Origin: Parasphingopyxis sp.
Lineage (GTDB): Bacteria > Pseudomonadota > Alphaproteobacteria > Sphingomonadales > Sphingomonadaceae
Assembly (NCBI RefSeq): GCF_028279465.1
Contig: NZ_JANQNS010000003.1
Span: 101,386 to 165,385 of the forward strand
Length of the DNA: 64,000 nt
Reading direction: 5' to 3'
Below are positions 6,963-64,000 of the stretch, piece by piece (position 1 is the stretch's first letter; each line of letters begins with the position of its first letter). The notes under the pieces are model-generated. The model made no database searches, was not told where the DNA came from, and was given only the letters and a program-made list of their open reading frames with translations. The position numbers and the translations under genes were made by a program.

Positions 6963-8899
6963 CGCAAGTCTGGCGGTGTTGCCTCTCCGCCAATCATCTC
7001 CACCGCCTCATCGAGCGGCATCACCTTCTGGTGCTTGTCGGAGCCCAGCTGACGTAGCGCGATTGTACCCTCTTCCGCCTCGCGCTTGCCGACAACGAGG
7101 AGATTTGGCACTTTGGCATGGCTGTGTTCGCGCACCTTATAGTTGATCTTCTCGTTCCGAAGATCGGATTCGACGCGGATACCCGCGGCCTTGAGCGTGG
7201 CAACAACCTCTTGCGCATAGTCATCGGCGTCCGAGACGATAGTGGCAACCACCGCCTGCACTGGTGCCAGCCACAGAGGCAATTTTCCGGCATAGTGCTC
7301 GATCAGAATGCCGATAAACCGTTCCAGCGAACCGAAGAGCGCGCGGTGCAGCATGACCGGGCGATGGCGCTCGCCATCCTCGCCGATATAGCCGATGTCG
7401 AAGGCTTCGGGCAGGTTCATATCGACCTGCAGCGTGCCGCACTGCCAATCGCGGCCAATCGCATCGCGCAACACGAACTCCAGCTTTGGTCCGTAAAACG
7501 CGCCTTCGCCCTCATTGATTGAATATTCGAGGTCCATAGCGTCGAGTGTATCGATCAGCGAGCCTTCAAGCACGTCCCAGACTGCGTCTGAACCCATGCG
7601 GTTTTCCGGTCGCGTCGAAAGCTTGAGCCGCACATCCTCAAAACCAAACTCGCGATAGATATCGAGTACGAGCGCAACCACGTCTCGGTTCTCATCATTG
7701 AGCTGCTCGGGTGTGCAAAAGATATGCGCATCATCTTGCGTAAAATGCCGTACCCGCATGAGACCATGCAGCGCTCCTGACGGTTCATAGCGGTGCACCT
7801 TGCCGAATTCGGCCATGCGCAGCGGCAGATCGCGATAGCTTTTCAGGCCATGGGCGAATAGCGACACGCCGCCGGGGCAGTTCATCGGTTTCAAGGCAAA
7901 GACGCGGTCATCTTCGGTTTGCGTCGTGAACATATGCTCATGATAGTTGAACCAATGGCCCGAGGTTTCCCACAAGCTACGGTCCATCACGTCGGGCGTG
8001 TTCACCTCGACATAACCGGCGCGCTCCTGCCGGCGGCGCATATAGGCGATCAAACCCCGGAACAGGTGCCAGCCATTGGGGTGCCAGAAGACCGCGCCGG
8101 GCGCGAATTCCTCGAAATGGAACAGGTCGAGCTCGCGGCCCAGTTTGCGATGGTCGCGCTTGGCGGCTTCCTCGAGCCGGTGGAGATGCGCCTTGAGCTG
8201 TTTCTTGTTGAGCCAGGCGGTGCCATAGACACGGCTCAGCATCGCGTTCTTCTGATCGCCGCGCCAATAGGCCCCGGCCACGCGCATGAGCTTGAAGGCC
8301 TGCGGGTCGAGCTTGCCGGTACTGGCCAGATGCGGCCCGCGACACATGTCCATCCAGTCATCACCCGACCAATAGACGGTGATCTCCTCGCCCTCGGGCA
8401 ATTCCTTGGCCCATTCGGCCTTGAAGCTTTCGCCGTCCTTTTCCCAGCGCTCGATCAGCGCGTCGTGCTCCCAGACTTCGCGGCGCAACGGTTTGTCGGC
8501 CTTGATGATCCGCCGCATCTCTTCCTCGATTGCGGGCAGGTCTTCCTCAGTCAGCGGCTCTTTCGGCGCGAAATCGTAATAGAAGCCATCCTCGGTCGCG
8601 GGGCCGAAGGTAATCTGCGTGCCGGGAAAGAGGTTTTGCACGGCCTCGGCCAGCACATGGGCGAAGTCATGCCGGACGAGTTCGAGCGCATCGGCCTCGT
8701 CGCGCGAGGTAATCAGTTCCAGCGCGGCATCGCCATCGAAGGGCCGGCCGATATCGCGCACTTCTCCATCGACGCGCGCGGCCAGCGCGGCCTTGGCGAG
8801 CCCGGGGCCGATCGCGGCGGCAACATCGGCCGGCGTGGCCCCGGCTTCCATCTCGCGCACCGATCCATCGGGCAGGCTGATCTTGAACATCTCGCTCAT
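6959..8899 (-). CDS. thrS: threonine--tRNA ligase
   Basis: TGS domain start [10 protein letters not shown]; class II aaRS core; ORF-track upstream extension is probably not translated. Confidence 0.92.
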
Positions 8900-9268
8900 G
8901 ACATTTTCTCGTCCTGTTTGCGCGCCGCCATGGCACAGCATGGCCCGCGCTTGAAGAGCGGTGTGAAGCTTGGTTGCCGATTTTCGGGAGGACACCGCAC
9001 CACCCGAAACCGGGTGGCGAATGCTGCGACCTAGGCCGCGACCATCCGTCCCCGGGGATCCGAGGTCGTAGTGGTCGTGCGCGTGGTCAGCAAAATGGCC
9101 ATGCGCGTCATATAGCGATGCTATGTTGCGATGTCACTAACGGCCAAGATTAGGCCGTTGGCGGTGGCTTGTCGGTCATCTACCGATGGGGCACCATGGT
9201 GGGATGACCGACAGCCATCATCGCGCGCGTTTTAGCGAGAGAAGGCCCTGGAAGGAGGATTGGTAGAC

Positions 9269-9877
9269 ATGAGCACCACCGTCGATTTCATTTTCGATTT
9301 CGCGAGCCCCAACGCCTATCTCGTCCATCGCGTGCTGCCGGGCATTGCGGAGCGGACGGGTGCGACGTTCAACTATATCCCCTGTCTCTTGGGCGGAATT
9401 TTCAAGGCGACGGGGAACAAGGCGCCGATGGTCGCCTATGCGCCGATCCCCAACAAGCTCGCCTACGAGCAGCTCGAATTCGGACGCTTCATTGCCAAAC
9501 ACCAACTGTCCGACTTCACCTTCAATCCGCACTTCCCCGTCAACACGGTGCTGCTCCAGCGCGGGGCTCTCGTCGCCGAGCGCGACGGGCGGCTGATGGA
9601 CTATGTCGAGGCCGGCCTCCACCATATGTGGGAAGCGCCGAAGAAGATGGACGATCCGGAAGCCTATGCGGCGGCGATGGACGAATCCGGTTTCGATGGC
9701 ACGGCGCTCGTCGAAGGCGCGCAGGATGCCGGAATCAAGCAGAAGTTGATCGACAATACGAGCACGGCGGTTGAGCGCGGCGCTTTCGGCATCCCGACCT
9801 TCTATGTCGGCGACGACATGTTCTTCGGCAAGGAACGGCTCGGCCAGCTCGAAGAGGCGATAGTAGCCGCTAGCTGA
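9269..9877 (+). CDS. 2-hydroxychromene-2-carboxylate isomerase / DsbA-like thioredoxin family protein
   Basis: FDFASPNAYL N-terminus typical of the HCCA isomerase family; GGAGG RBS. Confidence 0.7.
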   Translation: MSTTVDFIFDFASPNAYLVHRVLPGIAERTGATFNYIPCLLGGIFKATGNKAPMVAYAPIPNKLAYEQLEFGRFIAKHQLSDFTFNPHFPVNTVLLQRGALVAERDGRLMDYVEAGLHHMWEAPKKMDDPEAYAAAMDESGFDGTALVEGAQDAGIKQKLIDNTSTAVERGAFGIPTFYVGDDMFFGKERLGQLEEAIVAAS

Positions 9878-9888
9878 GCGGCGCGGTC

Positions 9889-10347
9889 TTAGCTCAGCGG
9901 CGCGCTGGCGAAGAGGACGCCGAAGGCGCGGCACCAGATCACGACGGAACGGTGATTGCCGTCGAGCGCGCCGGCCGGGATCACATAGCTCTGATTGCCG
10001 CGACTGCGCTGCAAACGGCCGAGATCGACATGGTTGGCGCGGCGCGCATGGCGTTCGCTGCGGACGCTGGCGGCATCGGTCACCCAGACGCGCAGGTCCG
10101 GACCGCCGGTCACCGAAAAATCTTCGAGTTGCACGACGAGATCGCCATTCGCCCGGCGGACGAGACGCGCGGTTCCGCTGGACCGGTGCGATCGGCCGAC
10201 ACCGCGGAACTGGCCGGACGCGACGGTCTCGGCGCCGCTCTGCGCGATTGCGGCAGATGGAGACGCGCCGGTGGAGAGCGGAACCGCAAGGGCCGCCAAT
10301 GCGATGGCTGAGGCGGCACCATAAGAGAATGTGCGAAACAGGGGCAT
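9889..10347 (-). CDS. DM13 domain-containing protein (secreted)
   Basis: Signal peptide; DM13-like pattern GQFRGVGRSH...GPDLRVWV. Confidence 0.55.
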   Translation of the reverse strand: MPLFRTFSYGAASAIALAALAVPLSTGASPSAAIAQSGAETVASGQFRGVGRSHRSSGTARLVRRANGDLVVQLEDFSVTGGPDLRVWVTDAASVRSERHARRANHVDLGRLQRSRGNQSYVIPAGALDGNHRSVVIWCRAFGVLFASAPLS

Positions 10348-10457
10348 GGTCGGTCCTTTGTTAGCGCCGCCAAAATTGCGGACTGACCGGGCTTCGCATC
10401 GGGGCTGTTGGAGGTTACAGCCATGCGCGAATCGCCTGCACCGGGAGAGGCTGCCGA

Positions 10458-11207
10458 ATGACCGAACTGCGCTATCATGAGCGGGCCGACCGGCCGCGCC
10501 TTGCCTATCGTCATCGCGAGGGAATAGGGCCGACGCTCGTCTTCCTGCCCGGCTATATGTCCGACATGACGGGCTCCAAGGCGAGTGCGATCATGGCCTA
10601 TGCCGAAGCGGAGAACCGGGCCTGCCTGCTGCTCGACTATGCCGGATGCGGATCGAGCGACGGCGATTTCGAAGCGCAGAAACTCACCGACTGGCGCGAC
10701 GATGTGATGGATCTCGTAAATGCGCTGGTGCTCGGGCCGGTCGTGCTGATCGGCTCGTCAATGGGCGGCTGGCTGATGCTGCTCTGCGCGCTTGCGCATC
10801 CTGAACGGGTGTCGGCGCTGGTCGGAATCGCGGCGGCGCCCGATTTCACGGACTGGGGCTTCACGCAGGACGAGAAGCTAACGATCCTGCGCGACGGCCG
10901 GCTCGAACAGCCATCCGATTATGACGATTCCCCCTATGTCACCACGCGCACCTTTTTCGAAAGCGGCGAAGCGAGCCGGTTGCTCGGCACGGAAATCGCC
11001 ATCGATTGCCCGGTGCGGCTGATCCATGGCCAGCAGGATCGCGATGTCCCATGGGAATATTCGGTCCGGCTCGCCCGGCAGCTGCGTTCAGCCGACGTCC
11101 ATGTCACGCTCGTCAAGGATGCCGATCACCGGCTGTCGCGCATCGAAGATGTCGCACGGCTATTGGCCCAGATCGAATGGCTGCTCGAAAGCCTGAAAGC
11201 GTCCTGA
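10458..11207 (+). CDS. alpha/beta hydrolase
   Basis: GSSMGG nucleophile elbow; 249 aa. Confidence 0.75.
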   Translation: MTELRYHERADRPRLAYRHREGIGPTLVFLPGYMSDMTGSKASAIMAYAEAENRACLLLDYAGCGSSDGDFEAQKLTDWRDDVMDLVNALVLGPVVLIGSSMGGWLMLLCALAHPERVSALVGIAAAPDFTDWGFTQDEKLTILRDGRLEQPSDYDDSPYVTTRTFFESGEASRLLGTEIAIDCPVRLIHGQQDRDVPWEYSVRLARQLRSADVHVTLVKDADHRLSRIEDVARLLAQIEWLLESLKAS

Positions 11208-57021: not shown

Positions 57022-57912
57022 ATGACGGCTGAGATTATCGACGGCAAGGCTTTCGCCGCGAAACTGCGCGAACGTGTTGCCACCCATGTGCCGGATTTTG
57101 TCGCAGCGGTGGGACGTAAGCCGGGCCTTGCGGTCGTGCTGGTCGGCGAGGATCCGGCAAGCCAGGTCTATGTCGGCTCCAAGGGCAAGGCGACGGTTGC
57201 GGCGGGCATGGAGAGTTTCGAGCATCGCCTGCCAGATACGACGTCCGAGGACGACCTGATCGCGCTCGTCGAAAAACTGAACGCGGACGATGCCGTGGAC
57301 GGGATTCTCGTGCAGTTACCGCTTCCCGATCATGTCGACGACAAGGCCGTAATCGCGGCCATCGATCCGGCCAAGGATGTCGATGGGTTCCATGTCGTCA
57401 ATGCCGGGCGGCTGGCGGTCGGCGAGGATGCGCTGGTTCCCTGCACGCCCTTGGGCTGTCTGATGCTCTTGAAGGACAAGCTTGGCGATCTTTCGGGGCT
57501 CGATGCGATAGTGGTGGGTCGCTCCAACATCGTCGGCAAGCCGATGGCGCAGCTGCTGCTTCGCGAAAACTGCACAGTGACGCTCGCGCACAGCCGGACG
57601 CGCGATCTGCCCGACGTCGTGCGCCGCGCCGATATCGTGGTCGCGGCGGTCGGCCGGGCCGAGATGGTGAAGGGCGACTGGCTGAAGCCAGGCGCCGTGG
57701 TCATCGATGTCGGCATCAACCGGCTGCCGCCCGCTGAAGAGGGCAAGAAGGGCAAGCTCGTTGGCGATGTCGCCTTTGCCGAGGCCGATCATGTGAAGGC
57801 GATCACGCCGGTGCCGGGCGGCGTCGGGCCGATGACGATCGCGGTACTGCTGCGCAACACGCTAGTCGCGGCCCGCGCCCGGGCCGGGCTCGATCCGGTG
57901 GCGGGTCTGTGA
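57022..57912 (+). CDS. folD: bifunctional methylenetetrahydrofolate dehydrogenase/cyclohydrolase
   Basis: Conserved FolD sequence. Confidence 0.92.
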
Positions 57913-58550
57913 CCGAACTGTTCATCTCGGCGCTGATCACCTTTTTCGTGGTGATCGACCCGCCGGGCTGTGCGCCGATCTTCGCAAGCCTGACGACCGG
58001 CGCGACGCCGAAGCAGCGGCGCGGCATGGCCTATCGCGCGATTCTCATCGCGACACTGATCCTGGTTTTCTTTGCGTTGCTCGGCGAGCAGCTTTTGAGC
58101 GCGCTCGGCATCACGCTCGATGCGTTCCGGATCGCGGGCGGGATCATGCTGTTCCTCATCGCGCTCGAAATGGTGTTCGAGAAACGCACCCAGCGCCGCG
58201 AGGACCGCGCGCAGAAGATTATCGACACACCGGAGATCGAGGATGTCTCGGCCTTTCCGATGGCGATCCCGATGATCGCCGGGCCGGGTACGATCGCGGC
58301 GGTGATGCTGCTCCAGGCGCACAGCACGGGCATTGAGGAAACGCTGGTCGTGCTTGGCGCACTGGCCACGATATTGCTGATGACTCTGCTCGCGCTGCTC
58401 GCGGCGGGCCCGATGATGCGGCTCTTGGGTCAGCGGACCGAAGCGGTGATTACGCGGCTGCTCGGCGTGATCCTTGGAGCGCTCGCCGCGCAATTCATCA
58501 TCACCGGCACGATCGGCGCGTTCGGGATCAGCGTACCCGCCACATCCTGA
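57909..58550 (+). CDS. MarC family (UPF0056) membrane protein
   Basis: GTG start overlaps folD stop; multi-TM MarC pattern. Confidence 0.75.
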
Positions 58551-60312
58551 ACGGCGAATCCTCCGGCAATTCGATTCGTTCGAGCCAATCGGGCGGCGTA
58601 TCTGCCATCAGCTGCGCATACATGCTCTCCGGATCGTCCGAACCGTAAAGCTTCTGGCCCGAAATACCCGGGCAGAGCAGGACATAATCGACATCATAGC
58701 GCGCGACCGTTTCGGCCATCCGCTCCGCATCCTCGCGAAAGGCGTGGAAGATATCGAGCATCGCCGGGCCGTTGCGATGATAGGGGCCCGCGATCGCGTC
58801 ATGGTGCGTCATCACGATCAGGCGCGGGCCGAGATCGACGGGCGCGAGCACCGTGCCGCGCGGCAAGTCTCCGATCGGCGCGTGCGCGGCTGCAGATGGA
58901 CAATCTTGCCCGTCCACGCCGTTCGCGACGACGGCGAGATCGTCTTCCGTCTCGGCGGCCTCGAGGACCATCGCGGAAGGCACGACGATCCATAGCCCGG
59001 TCATTACGGCGACGGCCGCCAGCGATCCGCCGACGCGCAGGAGCATGATCCCGGAGCGCCGCCAGCGTGGCAGCAGATGCCAGCCGATGACCGCCGCACC
59101 GGGCACGGCGAGAAGCTGCGCCGCCGGCGCGACGCGGACCTGCCAGAAGAGCAGCAGGATCGCGATACCCATGATGCCGGTCAGCGCGAGCAGCGGGAAA
59201 AGCCGTTCGGCCGCGCCGCGCGCTTGCCATGCAGCCACCACATAGCCGGCAAGGCCGGACAACGGCAGCGCCACGATGATCAGCGCGCGGCCGAGCGACT
59301 GCTGATAGAGCGGCCGGGCTTCGCGGACATTGTCGAGCCAGATCGCTTGCAGCTCCGCGCTCACGCCTTCGGGCCGGCTCAGGCAGTCGGGCCAGATCAG
59401 CGCGAACGCGATGGCGAGCACGCCGCCGGCCACTGCGCCGGCCCCGAGCCGGGCGCGCCAGTCAGGAAGCGGCAGAACGGCGAGCAGCACGAGCAGCGCG
59501 CCCGCGCCCGCCACCGCCGACAACCAGACCGGGGAGAGCGCATCGCAGACGGGCAGGCGGTTGGCGTTCGAGGCGAAGAGCGCGAAGCCGAGTGCCGCGC
59601 CGCCGCCCAGCGATGCGCCATAGGCCGCAATGCGCGCGCTCTCGGCCCGGTCGCGCACCCAGTAGAGCGCGGTCGCGGCCCCGATCAATGCGAGGAAGAC
59701 CAGCATCTCGAGCCCGATGGTCAGCGAGACGGCGGTTGCGATGCCGCTGGTCACGCCGCCGCGCGCGCGTTTCGGATCGACGAGCCCGGCCAGCGCCACG
59801 GCGAGCATCGCGAGCTGCCAGCCATGATGATCGATCCGGAGTGGCATCCACATCGGTACGAGCACGCCCGCGCAGAGCGCCGCCAGCAGCGCCAGCGGCC
59901 AGGCGACCGGATCGATGATCCGCCGCGCAACCGCCGCCAGCGCGAAAAGCCCGATGGCGAAGGGCAAGAGCGGCGCCAGCGCGACGGCCCAGCGCTCGGC
60001 CCAAGCGCTGCCCAGCATCGGTTCGAGCAGCAGGAACAGTGCCGCGATCGGCAGGTCGGGCAGATGCGACCAGTGGATGTTCGCACCGTCGGGCGGGGCG
60101 AGGCGATATTGGGTGAGATCGTACCAGGCCTGCCCGCCGAGCAGCGCGCGGACCTGGGCCAGCCGCAAATTATCGTCGGTATCGCCGAGCGCGAGCGCGG
60201 CAATGTCGGGCAGTTTCGCGAAAATCATCAATATGGCGACGGCAAGCCATACGGCCAACACGCCGGCTTTCCAGCGTTTCGCCAGCCAGCCATCTTCTGA
60301 AAATTCGGTCAT
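58528..60312 (-). CDS. large polytopic membrane protein, putative GT-C fold glycosyltransferase (ArnT/PMT-like)
   Basis: About 12 TM helices plus a C-terminal periplasmic domain; aspartate-rich first loop; family assignment tentative. Confidence 0.4.
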   Translation of the reverse strand: MTEFSEDGWLAKRWKAGVLAVWLAVAILMIFAKLPDIAALALGDTDDNLRLAQVRALLGGQAWYDLTQYRLAPPDGANIHWSHLPDLPIAALFLLLEPMLGSAWAERWAVALAPLLPFAIGLFALAAVARRIIDPVAWPLALLAALCAGVLVPMWMPLRIDHHGWQLAMLAVALAGLVDPKRARGGVTSGIATAVSLTIGLEMLVFLALIGAATALYWVRDRAESARIAAYGASLGGGAALGFALFASNANRLPVCDALSPVWLSAVAGAGALLVLLAVLPLPDWRARLGAGAVAGGVLAIAFALIWPDCLSRPEGVSAELQAIWLDNVREARPLYQQSLGRALIIVALPLSGLAGYVVAAWQARGAAERLFPLLALTGIMGIAILLLFWQVRVAPAAQLLAVPGAAVIGWHLLPRWRRSGIMLLRVGGSLAAVAVMTGLWIVVPSAMVLEAAETEDDLAVVANGVDGQDCPSAAAHAPIGDLPRGTVLAPVDLGPRLIVMTHHDAIAGPYHRNGPAMLDIFHAFREDAERMAETVARYDVDYVLLCPGISGQKLYGSDDPESMYAQLMADTPPDWLERIELPEDSPFRMWRVR

Positions 60313-60482
60313 TCGCCCCTCGATATTGGTCAGTCCGTTAGTCCTGAGCCTGTCGAAGGACGTCTATCGGCGGAGAAGCGCCCTTCGACAAGCTCAGGAC
60401 TAACGGCTTCTCGGGAAAGCACAGTTCTTCGTGGCTGATGAGGTCATAGTGAAGAAAGGTTAACCATCTTGTCTTAAGGCGC

Positions 60483-60902
60483 ATGGTCATGATGTCGAAC
60501 GGCATGATGTTTTCCAGCGACCTCGGCCGCCAGATCGTCCGCTATGCGATCAGCGGCGGCGGGCTCACGCTCTTCTATTCGGGCGTCTATTGGGTGGCCG
60601 CCGTGCCGATGGGCATCGATCCGTTGATCGCGAACACGGCCGCCTTTCTGGCAACCGTCGTCATCGGCTTTTTCGTCCATTCGCGCTGGAGCTTTGCCGG
60701 CCATGGGCGGCGCGACCGGCCGGTGCGCGCGTCGATCCTCTTTCTGCTCGTCAATCTGGCGGGCTTCGCGCTCAACAGTTTCTGGGTATGGCTGATCGCC
60801 ATACACTGGGCGCTGTCGCCCTCGCTGCCACTGATCCCGATCATCTTAGTGACGCCCTGGGTCAGCTTCTACCTCAACCGGCGCTGGACGTTCGGTAACT
60901 AG
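60483..60902 (+). CDS. GtrA family protein
   Basis: 139 aa; 4 TM; GtrA-like C-terminus (RWTFGN). Confidence 0.7.
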   Translation: MVMMSNGMMFSSDLGRQIVRYAISGGGLTLFYSGVYWVAAVPMGIDPLIANTAAFLATVVIGFFVHSRWSFAGHGRRDRPVRASILFLLVNLAGFALNSFWVWLIAIHWALSPSLPLIPIILVTPWVSFYLNRRWTFGN

Positions 60903-61951
60903 CCGATTTCCGGTTGGGCGACCGGCGTAACGCGTGCGCGCTTGGCTGCGGGCTTGTCCAGCGCATCGGCGATCCGGCCCGCGACCTTCCAGAAGATCAC
61001 GACCGCGATCGCCGAGACGATGCCGTCCGATCCGTAATGCCAGCCGAGATAGACCGAGCCGACCCAGATAAGCACGGCATAGGCGGCCATCACATAGCCG
61101 AAGATACGGTTGATCCGATAGGCGCCGAGCGCGAAGAGCACGGCCAGCGCATTATGGACAGACGGCATCGCCGAGATACCGCCGCCGATCACCAGCCCCT
61201 CCGCATTGCGGGCGCTGAGCAGCACGTCCATGCTGTGCAGTGCGGTGAGGTTGCCGCCGCCCGCGCCGAGCATTTCGTCATGCGCGCGGATGATCGCCAT
61301 CAGATCGGCATAGCTTTCATGTGGCCCGACCAGTGGATTGTAAAAACACGGACCCGCCGAGGGCAGCAGGAAGGCAAGGAATGTGCCGAGCCCGATCCAG
61401 ACGAAGACATAGGTCAGCAGATATTGGGTGCGCAGGCGATAGCTGTTCGGTCCAAGAAAGGCGCAGGCGATCACGCCGATCGACATCGGCACGAACCAGG
61501 CATGGTAGGAGAGGTCGATTAACCAGGTAGCGGTGGGCGATCCGAACCAGTTGTGGAACAGCACCCAACCATCCTGTCCGAAAAACAGCCAGCGATCGGC
61601 CTCAGCCAGCCAGGGGTCGTGGGCGAAGGGCTGGGTCGCGAGGATTTTCTGTTTGAAGGCGTTGAACGCCGATATCAGCAGCGCGAACAGTAGCGGCGGC
61701 CAGAAAAGCACGACAACACGCTCGCCGTGCAGGCGCTTGGCAAGGCCTTCGCGGAGCACTGTAAACGCCGAACGCGTCACGCCGTTCCGGGGCCGGCCTT
61801 CCCACAAGATGATCGGGAAGACCGGGCACACTATGAACAGCCAGAGTGCCGTGGCGCCGAACAGATAGACGCTGAACAGCTGCAGCTGTTCGCGCGGATC
61901 GACGAGGCCGCTGCCGAGTACTGCGAGAAAATTGGCGGCCGTGATGCCCAT
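60899..61951 (-). CDS. PAP2 superfamily (PAP2_3/Aur1-like) membrane protein, paralog A
   Basis: SAMPSVH and WHYGSD motifs; upstream part of the ORF-track ORF is Arg-rich frame noise; start set at MGITAANF. Confidence 0.55.
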   Translation of the reverse strand: MGITAANFLAVLGSGLVDPREQLQLFSVYLFGATALWLFIVCPVFPIILWEGRPRNGVTRSAFTVLREGLAKRLHGERVVVLFWPPLLFALLISAFNAFKQKILATQPFAHDPWLAEADRWLFFGQDGWVLFHNWFGSPTATWLIDLSYHAWFVPMSIGVIACAFLGPNSYRLRTQYLLTYVFVWIGLGTFLAFLLPSAGPCFYNPLVGPHESYADLMAIIRAHDEMLGAGGGNLTALHSMDVLLSARNAEGLVIGGGISAMPSVHNALAVLFALGAYRINRIFGYVMAAYAVLIWVGSVYLGWHYGSDGIVSAIAVVIFWKVAGRIADALDKPAAKRARVTPVAQPEIG

Positions 61952-62010
61952 CGCCCATGCGGCGACACGACTTTCTCTGCCGAAAATGGGAAAAGCGCTA
62001 AGCAAGGGCC

Positions 62011-62982
62011 TTAACCGACTGCCAGTGACTTCCCGCGCCCCAAGCCGCGCCAGGAATTGTAGAAGGCATAGGTCAATTTGTAACAGGCCCAAGCGGCCGC
62101 ACCGCCAACGATGCCGTCGACCGCATAGTGCCAGCCCAGCGCTATCGACAGCAGGAAAATAAGGAAACCCGCCGCCGCAATCGGCACATTCCAGCGCGGT
62201 GCGATCTGCTGGACCGCCACAATCATCCACACGGTCGTCGTGATGTGCAGAGAGGGCATGGCGGAGATCCCCGCGCCAGCGCCGAAACCCTGGACCGAAT
62301 ACAGGCTCCACAGATAGGCGGCGACTTCGCGGGTTTGAGATACGGCGCCAAGATCGGCGAACCTGTCCCCATAGCCCATATCCGCGTAAAATATCGGGCC
62401 CGTCGCGGGCAGCATTATGTGAATGACCGGGCCGATGACCGACCACATGAGGAAATAGGTCAGCATAAGCGCCGATTTCTGCGGCGAGGGCCGCGCGGTC
62501 AGCACGAGCAGCAGTACGATGAGCATCATCACGAACCAGCCGCGATGATAGAAAAAGGCCATCGGCATGGTGTTGAGCCAGGTCAGGAAAACCCACGGAT
62601 CGTTGCCGAAAAACAGCCAATAGTCGATATCGGCGAGGAGCGGATCGGCCCAGAAGGGTACGAGATAGTTGAGCAGCGGCTTCGTCCACATGAAGGTAGT
62701 CATGTTCAGGCCGGCGATTACGATCCCAAGGGCTGGAATGCTGTAGCTGCGCCAGTTCAGGGCAATCGTCTCGCGGACATGCGCGACCGGGCTGTCAACG
62801 CCGGCCCGCATCATGGAGACAAGGCCGTAACCGCCGACCAGGACGCAAGCCGCCAGAACCCAGATCGGCAAGACTGCTATGGCAGGAAGAATGCCCGAAT
62901 AGCTTGGAATGAGCAGAATAGCGATCAGACCGGACATAATGGTCAGTGCTATGCTGGGCACCAGCCAGTCGAAATCACGCAT
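62011..62982 (-). CDS. PAP2 superfamily (PAP2_3/Aur1-like) membrane protein, paralog B
   Basis: SAMPSLH and WHYAVD motifs; shares WLFFG.D.WV and GP.FY blocks with paralog A. Confidence 0.6.
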   Translation of the reverse strand: MRDFDWLVPSIALTIMSGLIAILLIPSYSGILPAIAVLPIWVLAACVLVGGYGLVSMMRAGVDSPVAHVRETIALNWRSYSIPALGIVIAGLNMTTFMWTKPLLNYLVPFWADPLLADIDYWLFFGNDPWVFLTWLNTMPMAFFYHRGWFVMMLIVLLLVLTARPSPQKSALMLTYFLMWSVIGPVIHIMLPATGPIFYADMGYGDRFADLGAVSQTREVAAYLWSLYSVQGFGAGAGISAMPSLHITTTVWMIVAVQQIAPRWNVPIAAAGFLIFLLSIALGWHYAVDGIVGGAAAWACYKLTYAFYNSWRGLGRGKSLAVG

Positions 62983-63084: not shown

Positions 63085-63813
63085 TTAACGACTTGATGTC
63101 GCTCGGCCGGGATTCTCTGCGAACAGCCATCCGCAGACGAACCCGGCCGCCAGTGCGCCCGCGAACTGGGCGATCAGGAACGGGCCGATATCGGCCGGCG
63201 CGATGCCGGCGAAGGTGTCGGAGAGGCCGCGCGCGACCGTGATCGCCGGATTGGCGAAACTCGTCGAACTCGTGAACCAGTAACCGGCGCTGATATAGAG
63301 GCCGACGGCGGGGGCGACCCAGCTCGGGCGGAAGCGGACCGCGCCGAGGATCGTGAAGATCAGGCCGAAGGTCGCGATCGCCTCGCCAGCCCATTGGCCG
63401 GTCCCCGTGCGCGTTTTCGTTGAGAATTGTAGGATGTCGAGATCGAACATCAGATGCGCGGCCCATACGCCAATGATCCCGCCCACAAGCTGGGCGAGGA
63501 CGTACAGCAAGGCCTCGCTCGCCGGCAGTTCGCGGCGGATGAAGGCGACGAGCGTGACCGCCGGGTTGAAATGCGCGCCGGAGAGCGGCGCGAGCGCGAG
63601 GATGATGACGAACAGGATCGCGCCGGTCGCGAGCGTGTTGCCGAGCAGCGCGATGGCGACGTTCCCGCCGGACAGCGTGTCGCCCATGATGCCCGAGCCG
63701 ATCACCGTGCAGAACAGGAAGAAAGAGCCGATGGCTTCAGCGGCGAGGCGGCGCGGCAGACCGGGATGGTCCGTGGCGCGCGGCTGCTCGTCGCGGATCA
63801 TGTCTTCAGACAA
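63085..63813 (-). CDS. MIP family channel (aquaporin/aquaglyceroporin, AqpS-like)
   Basis: Two NPA motifs (HFNPAVT, FANPAIT); TTG start overlaps upstream arsC stop. Confidence 0.85.
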   Translation of the reverse strand: MSEDMIRDEQPRATDHPGLPRRLAAEAIGSFFLFCTVIGSGIMGDTLSGGNVAIALLGNTLATGAILFVIILALAPLSGAHFNPAVTLVAFIRRELPASEALLYVLAQLVGGIIGVWAAHLMFDLDILQFSTKTRTGTGQWAGEAIATFGLIFTILGAVRFRPSWVAPAVGLYISAGYWFTSSTSFANPAITVARGLSDTFAGIAPADIGPFLIAQFAGALAAGFVCGWLFAENPGRATSSR

Positions 63814-64000
63814 TGGTCGATCCTTCGCTCTTGCCGATATCGGCGAGTTTCCCGGTCAGCGCGTCGCGGTCGAGGCTATCATGCGGCAGCGCGAGAAAAG
63901 CGTCGATGCGCATTTCGAGAAGGCGCAGGGCCTCTTCGAATGCGGCGCGCTGGCCATCGCCTTCGATCGCCGCTGGGTCGGCGATCCCCCAATGGGCGCT
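63806..64000 (-). CDS. arsC: arsenate reductase (LMW phosphatase family ArsC), 5' end outside window
   Basis: Hand-translated C-terminus ...DPAAIEGDGQRAAFEEALRLLEMRIDAFLALPHDSL... matches the LMWP-type ArsC tail. Confidence 0.55.
   Translation of the reverse strand, partial: SAHWGIADPAAIEGDGQRAAFEEALRLLEMRIDAFLALPHDSLDRDALTGKLADIGKSEGSTIV

Follow-up and report, generated by a model that had tools for sequence, protein, structure and literature searches.

An Aur1-like PAP2_3 gene pair beside GtrA and GT-C genes in Parasphingopyxis: a candidate cell-envelope decoration locus of sphingomonads

The window, that is, the whole 64-kb stretch of DNA analysed here, belongs to Parasphingopyxis, and the host is thus a sphingomonad, as an earlier note on this DNA had supposed. 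The four genes to which that note drew attention are present where it placed them: PAP2_3-B (62011–62982, minus strand, 323 aa) and PAP2_3-A (60899–61951, minus strand, 350 aa), both annotated as Aur1-like lipid phosphate transferases (PF14378); a gene for a GtrA-family small membrane protein (60483–60902, plus strand, 139 aa; PF04138); and a gene for a polytopic GT-C glycosyltransferase (58528–60312, minus strand, 594 aa), assigned from its predicted fold and without a Pfam match. The arsC–aquaporin pair described upstream on the same strand was also found, as a MIP (aquaporin) gene (63085–63813, minus strand) and the C-terminus only of an LMWPc ArsC gene (63809–64000, minus strand). The PAP2_3 pair follows the MIP gene after a gap of 102 nt. 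The GtrA gene lies on the strand opposite to the GT-C gene and both PAP2_3 genes; it is divergent from the former and convergent with PAP2_3-A, whose end it overlaps by 4 nt. A 596-aa open reading frame (60899–62689) in the mechanical list was rejected as over-extended. The true start of PAP2_3-A is the ATG at 61951, from which the product is 100% identical to a 350-aa Parasphingopyxis sp. protein at NCBI (P0121); likewise, P0241 is 100% identical to PAP2_3-B. A scan for terminators and promoters gave intragenic hits only, which have no bearing on operon structure.

Both PAP2_3-A and PAP2_3-B (A and B below) passed the PF14378 (PAP2_3) cut-off of 27 bits (84.3 and 74.6 bits, respectively) and remained below the gathering threshold of PF01569 (PAP2; 19.0 and 17.3 bits against 27.2). 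The PAP2 C2/C3 motifs and the WLFFG and GPxFY blocks reported earlier were confirmed in both sequences: GISAMPSVH, GWHYGSDG, RWLFFGQDGWV, and SAGPCFY in A, and GISAMPSLH, GWHYAVDG, YWLFFGNDPWV, and ATGPIFY in B. The SAMPS[VL]H and WHY[GA][SV]DG motifs were invariant in 47 aligned family members. The His-His-Asp triads of A (H266/H305/D309 in the protein, which are H267/H306/D310 of alignment A2) and B (H246/H285/D289) align with H255/H294/D298 of Aur1 [PSLH(255), HH(294)YFVD(298)], residues that are essential in Aur1 (PMC13133130). Aur1 was the sole sequence match in a profile search of the PDB with this family, with a marginal E value of 0.018, and no PgpB, LpxE, or LpxF sequence was returned by that search. 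Aur1 was also the top fold match (ca. 13% identity when aligned by structure); the overall fold is nearer to Aur1 than to the PAP2 phosphatases, and the Aur1 alignment runs ca. 85 residues past the core shared with the phosphatases. The motif-bearing loops lie on the side opposite the K/R-rich loops, and the active site is predicted to be on the non-cytoplasmic face, in line with the periplasmic placement for which the earlier note had proposed a topology check. The NCBIfam equivalog for enzymes of the BT_1522 type (NF052609, PhinosDhcerSyn) scored 13.4 bits with A against a cut-off of 480 and gave no hit with B. These results support the assignment of A and B as Aur1-like rather than LpxE/LpxF/PgpB-like proteins, which is the subgroup the earlier note had favored over lipid A phosphatases.

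The PAP2_3 paralogs of yeast, Aur1 (inositol phosphorylceramide synthase) and Ipt1, act on ceramide and mannosylated sphingolipid. A and B share with them the Pfam family, the aligned triad, the PSxH and HYxxD motifs, and a PxxGPxFY block, and in both cases two paralogs occur in one genome. However, identity to Aur1 is as low as the value given above, and no Kei1-like partner is known for the window proteins.

The alternative that A and B are phosphatases is in our view unlikely. They would either recover the polyprenyl-diphosphate left over when an STT3-like enzyme uses a diphosphate-linked donor or trim a phosphate from a lipid-linked sugar-phosphate donor. PAP2 phosphatases carry the motifs C1 (KxxxxxxRP) and C3 (SRxxxxxHxxxD) with phosphate-binding arginines. 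Both the C1 and C3 arginines were absent from all 47 aligned PAP2_3 members, among which no Arg was invariant; the C1-like region reads K101-x7-P-F, and the C3 region, S300-[VI]-x-L-G-W-H306, has no Arg. The C3 arginine is likewise missing from the part of Aur1 that aligns. The Pfam results and the extent of the Aur1 alignment also argue against phosphatases. In favor of phosphatases, STT3-type enzymes classically use diphosphate-linked donors. On the same side, the His-His-Asp triad is common to the hydrolases and transferases of the superfamily (PMC13133130), and a comparable set of proteins is known from the mycobacterial decaprenyl-phosphate-arabinose pathway, which comprises Rv3806c, the PAP2 protein Rv3807c, the GtrA-like Rv3789, and GT-C arabinosyltransferases (PMC11127046). 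The combination of PAP2-superfamily, GtrA-like, and GT-C proteins is thus shared with the window locus, and the trimming of a donor by A or B would parallel the role of Rv3807c. However, Rv3807c, which dephosphorylates the lipid-linked donor, is a PAP2 protein, whereas A and B are PAP2_3 proteins without the phosphatase arginines. Neither a UbiA-type phosphoribosyltransferase nor DprE1/E2 was seen near the window locus.

BLASTP aligned A and B over 228 aa at 33% identity (E = 2e-22), which shows them to be homologs. Each has closer orthologs of its own in other genera, with 45–76% identity for A and, in Sphingomonas, Allosphingosinicella, and Sphingosinicella, 53–68% for B. Therefore, the split between A and B is older than those genera, and the local duplication that the earlier note had suggested was rejected. 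The tandem B–A arrangement was found only in one subclade of Parasphingopyxis, represented by the window, L005/L006, and P. marina L010.

For the 594-aa protein, the GT-C relationship proposed earlier was borne out by structure prediction, which alone resolved it. The high-confidence model has a GT-C fold, and its best structural matches were STT3, AglB, and PglB, at 12–16% identity over ca. 500 residues that take in the C-terminal globular domain. No Pfam family matched at E ≤ 0.1 (STT3, PF02516, included), NCBIfam gave nothing, and a 50-sequence profile of the family found no sequence match in the PDB. The protein consists of a transmembrane core followed, from about residue 470, by a C-terminal globular domain that is acidic. 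Invariant in the family are D46 and D47 in the first external loop, D161-H162-H163, E202, C256/C310, E331, R393, and H512-R513. The protein thus shows two marks of GT-C enzymes, the polytopic GT-C fold and an acidic residue conserved in extracytoplasmic loop 1. The acidic C-terminal domain and the conserved Cys pair fit a periplasmic location. Since A and B fall in the PAP2_3 class and their large neighbor has a GT-C fold, neither of the two outcomes that the earlier note had named as counting against it was found, namely, clustering with LpxE/LpxF/PgpB and a 594-aa protein with no GT-C relationship.

Like STT3/AglB/PglB (GT66), the 594-aa protein has a C-terminal globular domain and, in its first external loop, acidic residues that do not vary in the family; an invariant Glu in the long external loop 5 and an invariant Arg after it may be further points of agreement. 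Judged from sequence, D161-H162-H163 (D-x-H-like, resembling the second DXD of AglB) and V-S-A-E320 and the invariant E331 are possible counterparts of the second DXD and the fifth-loop glutamate. In contrast to GT66 enzymes, it lacks WWDYG, and its C-terminal domain has instead T502-x-H504 ... G509-P-Y-H-R-N514 with an invariant GPYHRNG. Homologs also occur in the Rhizobiaceae (Shinella). The family is found in hundreds of species, and databases mislabel it as an AcrB-type pump.

The GtrA assignment made in the earlier note holds, with 69.3 bits to PF04138 (cut-off 26.1) and residues 20–137 covering profile positions 1–117 of 117; this protein is a candidate polyprenyl-phosphate-sugar flippase. 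The comparison covered the 60 related loci for which 6 kb or more of sequence lay upstream, and PAP2_3 genes were also counted over 80 loci. GtrA was the divergent neighbor of the GT-C gene in all 60, and a GtrB-like GT2 gene was present in 54. The best matches of this GT2 were PgfS (7e-72) and ArnC (3e-45), both polyprenyl-phosphate-sugar synthases. A Novosphingobium plasmid carries the same combination of GtrA, GT-C, methyltransferase, and glycosyltransferase genes. PAP2_3 genes were found in 7 of the 80 loci and in about five of the 60, occupying a variable slot that elsewhere holds GT87 or extra GT2 genes. The conserved functional unit is therefore GtrA plus GT-C, usually with a GtrB-like GT2, and PAP2_3 is accessory. 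By tblastn, neither the GtrB-like GT2 nor the methyltransferase nor a ca. 510-aa membrane protein found beside PAP2_3 in other genera was detected in the locus or elsewhere in the 64-kb window. Nothing in the window thus accounts for the supply of the sugar donor, which counts against the Gtr-type reading given below. The ca. 510-aa companion had no Pfam or PDB match, and its comparison with the GT-C family by hhalign reached a probability of only 13%.

These comparisons also bear on the phosphatases considered above: the GT2 that goes with these loci belongs to the monophosphate-sugar type (GtrB/ArnC/PgfS), so no diphosphate would be released, and a housekeeping recycler would not be expected in just 7 of 80 loci or at a position that other loci fill with GT87 or GT2 genes. 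The monophosphate type of the donor-making enzyme is also a difference from GT66 systems. Euryarchaeal AglB, with dolichyl-monophosphate donors, offers a precedent for a further reading, in which the GT-C protein acts as a genuine oligosaccharyltransferase-like enzyme, attaching a polyprenyl-phosphate-linked sugar to proteins of the periplasm or outer membrane, and PAP2_3 has an independent lipid function. The locus GT2 is weakly similar to archaeal AglJ (2e-12), and the locus can dispense with PAP2_3. Against protein glycosylation stand the missing WWDYG sequon-binding motif, replaced in the equivalent region by the invariant GPYHRNG, the failure to match Pfam STT3, and the lack of any candidate glycoprotein or sequon support. 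We regard this reading as improbable.

PAP2_3 genes also occur apart from the GT-C system. One B-type ortholog is solitary and outside the locus, and Sinorhizobium (Rhizobiaceae) has a tandem PAP2_3 pair without GtrA, GT-C, or other glycosylation neighbors; together with the count of 7 in 80 loci, this indicates that PAP2_3 can do without the GT-C system. Adjacency might then be no more than inherited gene order, A and B being stand-alone membrane-lipid enzymes in a conserved block or, in Parasphingopyxis, partners of the ars genes. The locus does sit in a block syntenic across genera (rlmN–CMAS–...–marC–folD–yggT) that includes unrelated housekeeping genes, and the pair lies close behind arsC–MIP on the same strand. 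However, outside Parasphingopyxis five of the six PAP2_3 genes examined were in the same GtrA/GT-C locus despite internal rearrangements, before the ca. 510-aa gene in L002, L004, L089, and L090 and after the GT2 gene in L003. Furthermore, in Chakrabartia PAP2_3 shares one stop-free frame with the adjoining ca. 510-aa protein in an apparent fusion, and the PAP2_3 slot is otherwise filled by glycosyltransferases. The ars neighborhood is peculiar to Parasphingopyxis, the upstream neighbor in other genera being CMAS or argG, and the link of the ars genes to the pair appears incidental. Gene order alone is thus, to our mind, a doubtful explanation.

The reading we prefer, though with about as much doubt as belief, is that the region is the Parasphingopyxis form of a Sphingomonadales-wide, Gtr-type, periplasm-facing locus for envelope-glycoconjugate decoration with accessory phospho-head-group transferases. 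A GtrB/ArnC-like GT2, present at most related loci but absent from the window, would make a polyprenyl-phosphate-sugar in the cytoplasm, GtrA would move it across the inner membrane, and the STT3/AglB-like GT-C enzyme would hand the sugar to a periplasmic acceptor. A and B may be accessory decorating enzymes in the manner of Aur1 or Ipt1. Their triad, at the periplasmic membrane surface, would pull a phospho-head group off a phosphodiester lipid, most simply a membrane phospholipid (PG, PE, or PC), via a phospho-histidine intermediate and deliver it to a hydroxyl group on an acceptor lipid or glycan; the two enzymes would have different donors or different acceptors. The gene identities, the folds, the catalytic residues, and the synteny are observed here, whereas we infer the topology, the donors, the acceptors, and any functional link between PAP2_3 and the GT-C enzyme.

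Sphingomonads are known to lack LPS and build their outer membrane from glycosphingolipids instead. Described Gtr-type systems (O-antigen glucosylation, lipid A modification by ArnC/ArnT, and the GT136 systems) resemble the locus in the GtrA/GT-C pairing found in all related loci and in the GT2 found in most. GT136 pentofuranose systems are an example of three-component periplasmic glycosylation (PMC11127046). The window locus differs from them in that it has no GT2, its GT-C protein is structurally nearer to STT3/AglB than to ArnT, and it includes an Aur1-like phosphotransferase, which is not part of the described systems; in an LPS-free host, its acceptor would be something other than LPS. 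The PI-ceramide cluster of Bacteroides thetaiotaomicron contains the Aur1-like PI-dihydroceramide synthase BT_1522 and a GtrA-motif membrane protein, BT_1524 (PMC9246714). That sphingolipid producer thus also combines an Aur1-like enzyme with a GtrA-motif protein, but its cluster has no GT-C enzyme, and genes for MIPS, PIP synthase, or a PgpA-like protein were not found in the vicinity of the window locus. The ceramide-phosphoglycerate pathway of Caulobacter was set aside, since the published account, in the part consulted, gives a different gene set and no PAP2-type enzyme (PMC11324152).

For a sphingomonad without LPS, the acceptor class is most likely an outer-membrane ceramide or glycosphingolipid, a plausible but unproven proposal. 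We know of no sphingolipid synthesis in the Rhizobiaceae, and the GT-C and PAP2_3 homologs in that family weaken a reading specific to sphingolipids. Two sphingomonads make phospho-hexose or inositol ceramides for which no genes have been assigned (PMC9246714). An attempt to tie the phospho-hexose ceramide of S. paucimobilis to PAP2_3 failed: in the related S. parapaucimobilis, the locus retains its core of GT-C, GtrA, and methyltransferase genes, GtrA being again divergent from the GT-C gene, but no PAP2_3 gene lies nearby. A bolder proposal, which we consider a long shot, is that the 594-aa protein founds an unrecognised bacterial STT3/AglB branch, spread over the Sphingomonadales, that uses a polyprenyl-monophosphate sugar donor to glycosylate the glycosphingolipid replacing LPS; H512-R513 might stand in for WWDYG as the site that binds the uronic acid head group. 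A and B would then be the missing phospho-hexose and phospho-inositol ceramide synthases, perhaps with the flipped polyprenyl-phosphate-sugar as a sugar-1-phosphate donor.

What has been found looks like an uncharacterised cell-envelope decoration locus across sphingomonads. Its oligosaccharyltransferase architecture, from which the sequon-binding motif is missing, makes the 594-aa protein well suited to studies of how this scaffold is adapted to a new acceptor. Most of the sphingomonad genes that make or decorate outer-membrane glycosphingolipids are still unidentified, and the locus provides concrete candidates. One is a putatively periplasmic glycosyltransferase; the others are the two Aur1-like phosphotransferases, which could explain bacterial phosphosphingolipids that lack assigned genes.

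The interval 58528-62982 contains four genes, as the earlier note had observed; three are on the minus strand and one is on the plus strand. PAP2_3-B (62011-62982, minus strand, 323 aa) is followed by PAP2_3-A (60899-61951, minus strand, 350 aa), a GtrA-family gene (60483-60902, plus strand, 139 aa), and a gene for a polytopic 594-aa protein (58528-60312, minus strand; GT-C gene), with marC (57909-58550, plus strand) downstream and convergent with the last. A mechanical ORF of 596 aa (60899-62689) was rejected as PAP2_3-A because it was over-extended and overlapped PAP2_3-B; the true start is the ATG at 61951. PAP2_3-A and PAP2_3-B are each 100% identical to an annotated NCBI protein of Parasphingopyxis sp. 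(P0121 and P0241, respectively), indicating that the source organism belongs to Sphingomonadales. Upstream of PAP2_3-B on the same strand are a MIP channel gene (63085-63813, minus strand) and the C-terminus of an LMWPc-family ArsC (63809-64000, minus strand), which overlaps the start of the MIP gene by 4-5 nt. Since the gene order in related genomes is ArsR-glyoxalase-ArsC-MIP, this pair is an ars operon ending 102 nt before PAP2_3-B. The divergent gtrA/GT-C intergenic region carries an inverted repeat (60335-60406; 28-nt arms, 93% complementary, 16-nt loop) that occurs once in the window and is possibly a REP-like element or an operator. Its match to Rfam RF02901, at 30.8 bits, falls below the gathering score of 97.

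PAP2_3-A and PAP2_3-B are homologs that share 33% identity over 228 aa (E 2e-22), and both contain the motifs quoted in the earlier note. That note had also likened their motif spacing to the PAP2_3 subgroup (Aur1) rather than to lipid A phosphatases, and the profile comparison agreed: both passed PF14378 (PAP2_3; 84.3 and 74.6 bits, respectively; cut-off 27) and failed PF01569 (PAP2 phosphatases; 19.0 and 17.3 bits; cut-off 27.2). When a 47-sequence profile of both types was compared with the PDB sequence set, yeast AUR1 was the sole match, with a marginal E value of 0.018, and the alignment was in register at PxxGPxFY, AxPSxH, and HYxxD. In PAP2 phosphatases, two arginines bind the phosphomonoester; neither is conserved in the aligned PAP2_3 family. 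The invariant PAP2_3 residues include a His-His-Asp triad equivalent to H255/H294/D298 of Aur1, which is essential for inositol-phosphoceramide (IPC) synthesis (PMC13133130). By sequence, PAP2_3-A and PAP2_3-B thus group with the Aur1-type transferases and not with the PAP2 phosphatases. That they act as phosphatases which, like Rv3807c of mycobacteria, trim a donor, or which recycle the carrier lipid, is unlikely given the failed PF01569 profile and the missing arginines. With the model of the proven bacterial PI-dihydroceramide synthase (cut-off 480), PAP2_3-A scored 13.4 bits and PAP2_3-B had no match; they are not its orthologs. K/R-rich and motif-bearing loops alternate, and, following the positive-inside rule, we infer that the active site would face the periplasm.

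The earlier note's observation is correct and its family assignments are largely upheld, but its reading of the pair as a local duplication fails. A-type orthologs share 45-76% identity with PAP2_3-A, whereas B-type proteins, found in Sphingomonas, Allosphingosinicella, and Sphingosinicella, share 24-29% with PAP2_3-A but 53-68% with PAP2_3-B. Because each type has its own orthologs and the B type occurs in other genera, the split between them is old. The tandem B-A order was found only in the window, a metagenome relative (L005/L006), and P. marina (L010). A close Parasphingopyxis MAG (L007) has PAP2_3-A without PAP2_3-B, and in P. algicola (L001) PAP2_3-A is followed by extra genes.

The 594-aa protein had no match in Pfam, NCBIfam, or PDB profile searches. 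Its structure, modelled from a 50-sequence alignment (pLDDT 92.4, pTM 0.93), was searched with Foldseek, and the top 16 matches were all oligosaccharyltransferase (OST) catalytic subunits (E 1e-10 to 5e-7). The C-terminal globular domain alone matched those of AglB-S2 and PglB, and no RND pump was among the structural matches listed. These results indicate that the protein is, by predicted structure, a GT-C glycosyltransferase with STT3 architecture, in line with the GT-C-like character ascribed to it in the earlier note. The NCBI name "AcrB/AcrD/AcrF family protein" carried by homologs (e.g., L094 9959-11728) is therefore a misannotation. Residues invariant in homologs down to 27% identity are D46, D47 (both in the first external loop), D161-H162-H163, E202, C256/C310, E331, R393, and H512-R513, and they could plausibly correspond to residues of the metal and phosphate site in OSTs. 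An OST-like enzyme might glycosylate proteins; however, the sequon-binding motif WWDYG is absent from the family, implying that the acceptor is recognised otherwise than in N-glycosylation, and we consider protein glycosylation improbable. The family comprises 5484 clusters at 50% identity (E<=1e-3), and at least 592 genomes of different species carry it. Among these, the 80 best matches were sphingomonad or unclassified alphaproteobacterial records with two exceptions, MAG contigs (L019 and L088) that bear the names Prosthecochloris vibrioformis and Bacillota. Both contigs carry typical sphingomonad GT2-GtrA-GT-C-MarC loci and were probably mis-binned.

The 80 loci with the best GT-C matches were screened by tblastn and with an HMM of the PAP2_3 alignment, and genes were counted in the 60 loci where the sequence reached 6 kb or more upstream. 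GtrA was the divergent neighbour of the GT-C gene in all 60. A GtrB-like GT2, whose best-scoring matches were PgfS (7e-72) and ArnC (3e-45), two synthases of polyprenyl-phosphate sugars, was nearby in 54, marC in 50, and a ca. 510-aa membrane protein of no assigned family in 27; a SAM methyltransferase gene often adjoins gtrA. PAP2_3 was near the GT-C gene in about 5 of the 60 loci (7 of 80 overall). Five of six PAP2_3-seeded look-ups outside Parasphingopyxis fell in the GtrA/GT-C locus, and one PAP2_3 gene was solitary. That PAP2_3 and GT-C are no more than conserved neighbours is hard to square with the seeded look-ups, and we think it improbable. PAP2_3 lay directly upstream of the ca. 510-aa gene in four of the five seeded loci and after GT2 in L003. 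In loci without PAP2_3, the slot upstream of the ca. 510-aa gene is taken by a GT-C enzyme of family GT87, a further GT2, or an unknown protein of 251 aa (e.g., L027 2716-3942, L023 3031-4062, and L013 3276-4031), much as in the variable section of a locus for surface glycans. The picture is of a conserved GtrA/GT-C core, with GT2 and methyltransferase, and variable decorating enzymes, of which PAP2_3-A and PAP2_3-B are two. The window has a reduced version of the locus: GT2, the ca. 510-aa gene, and the methyltransferase were found neither there nor elsewhere in the 64 kb, while both PAP2_3 types are present.

The ca. 510-aa polytopic protein (L001 11184-12713 and homologs, alignment A4), which accompanies PAP2_3 in other genera, has a conserved PPLxDLxGHxGRY loop. 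Searches of Pfam, NCBIfam, and the PDB sequences gave no match for it, and its similarity to the GT-C family was not significant (hhalign probability 13%). In Chakrabartia godavariana (L033 3078-5750), the PAP2_3 and ca. 510-aa genes form a single reading frame uninterrupted by a stop codon, possibly a natural fusion linking both functions or, alternatively, a sequencing error.

Taken together, the findings best support, with middling confidence, a three-component periplasmic glycosylation system of the Gtr type with an STT3-like GT-C transferase and Aur1/Ipt1-like phosphotransferases. The three-component system would glycosylate at the periplasmic side with the GT-C enzyme as transferase, and the PAP2_3 enzymes would take a phospho-head group from a phosphodiester lipid and add it to an acceptor. 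Donors, acceptors, and the coupling of PAP2_3 to GT-C are what we infer beyond the observed folds, motifs, and gene associations. Sphingomonads are not known to make LPS, and ceramides are substrates of Aur1-family enzymes. Ceramides with a phospho-hexose or phospho-inositol head group occur in two sphingomonads, with no known genes for their synthesis (PMC9246714). These points make a sphingolipid or glycosphingolipid an attractive acceptor, although a tentative one that we rate below an even chance, and the sphingolipid function proposed in the earlier note is hypothetical.

Both families also occur elsewhere. Shinella has a GT-C homolog (29% identity) adjoining a methyltransferase, without GtrA or GT2. 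Plasmid pA of Sinorhizobium chiapasense (L092) carries a separate tandem PAP2_3 pair (8755-9822 and 9825-10967; 37% and 34% identity to PAP2_3-A), one weakly nearer PAP2_3-A and the other PAP2_3-B, with no GtrA, GT-C, or other glycosylation genes in the neighbourhood. Neither family is therefore strictly tied to sphingolipid producers. A paralogous set on a plasmid of Novosphingobium sp. MBES04 (L095 2361-9812) consists of an FAD-dependent oxidoreductase, which calls to mind the DprE1-type epimerisation of lipid-linked sugars, GtrA, a GT-C homolog (30% identity), a "GtrA family" fusion protein of 615 aa, a SAM methyltransferase, and a glycosyltransferase.

The locus varies known kinds of system and is not categorically new. 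Its analysis brought to light an STT3-like GT-C family that is widespread in Sphingomonadales under a wrong name, and provides concrete candidates for phosphosphingolipid synthesis that are open to test.
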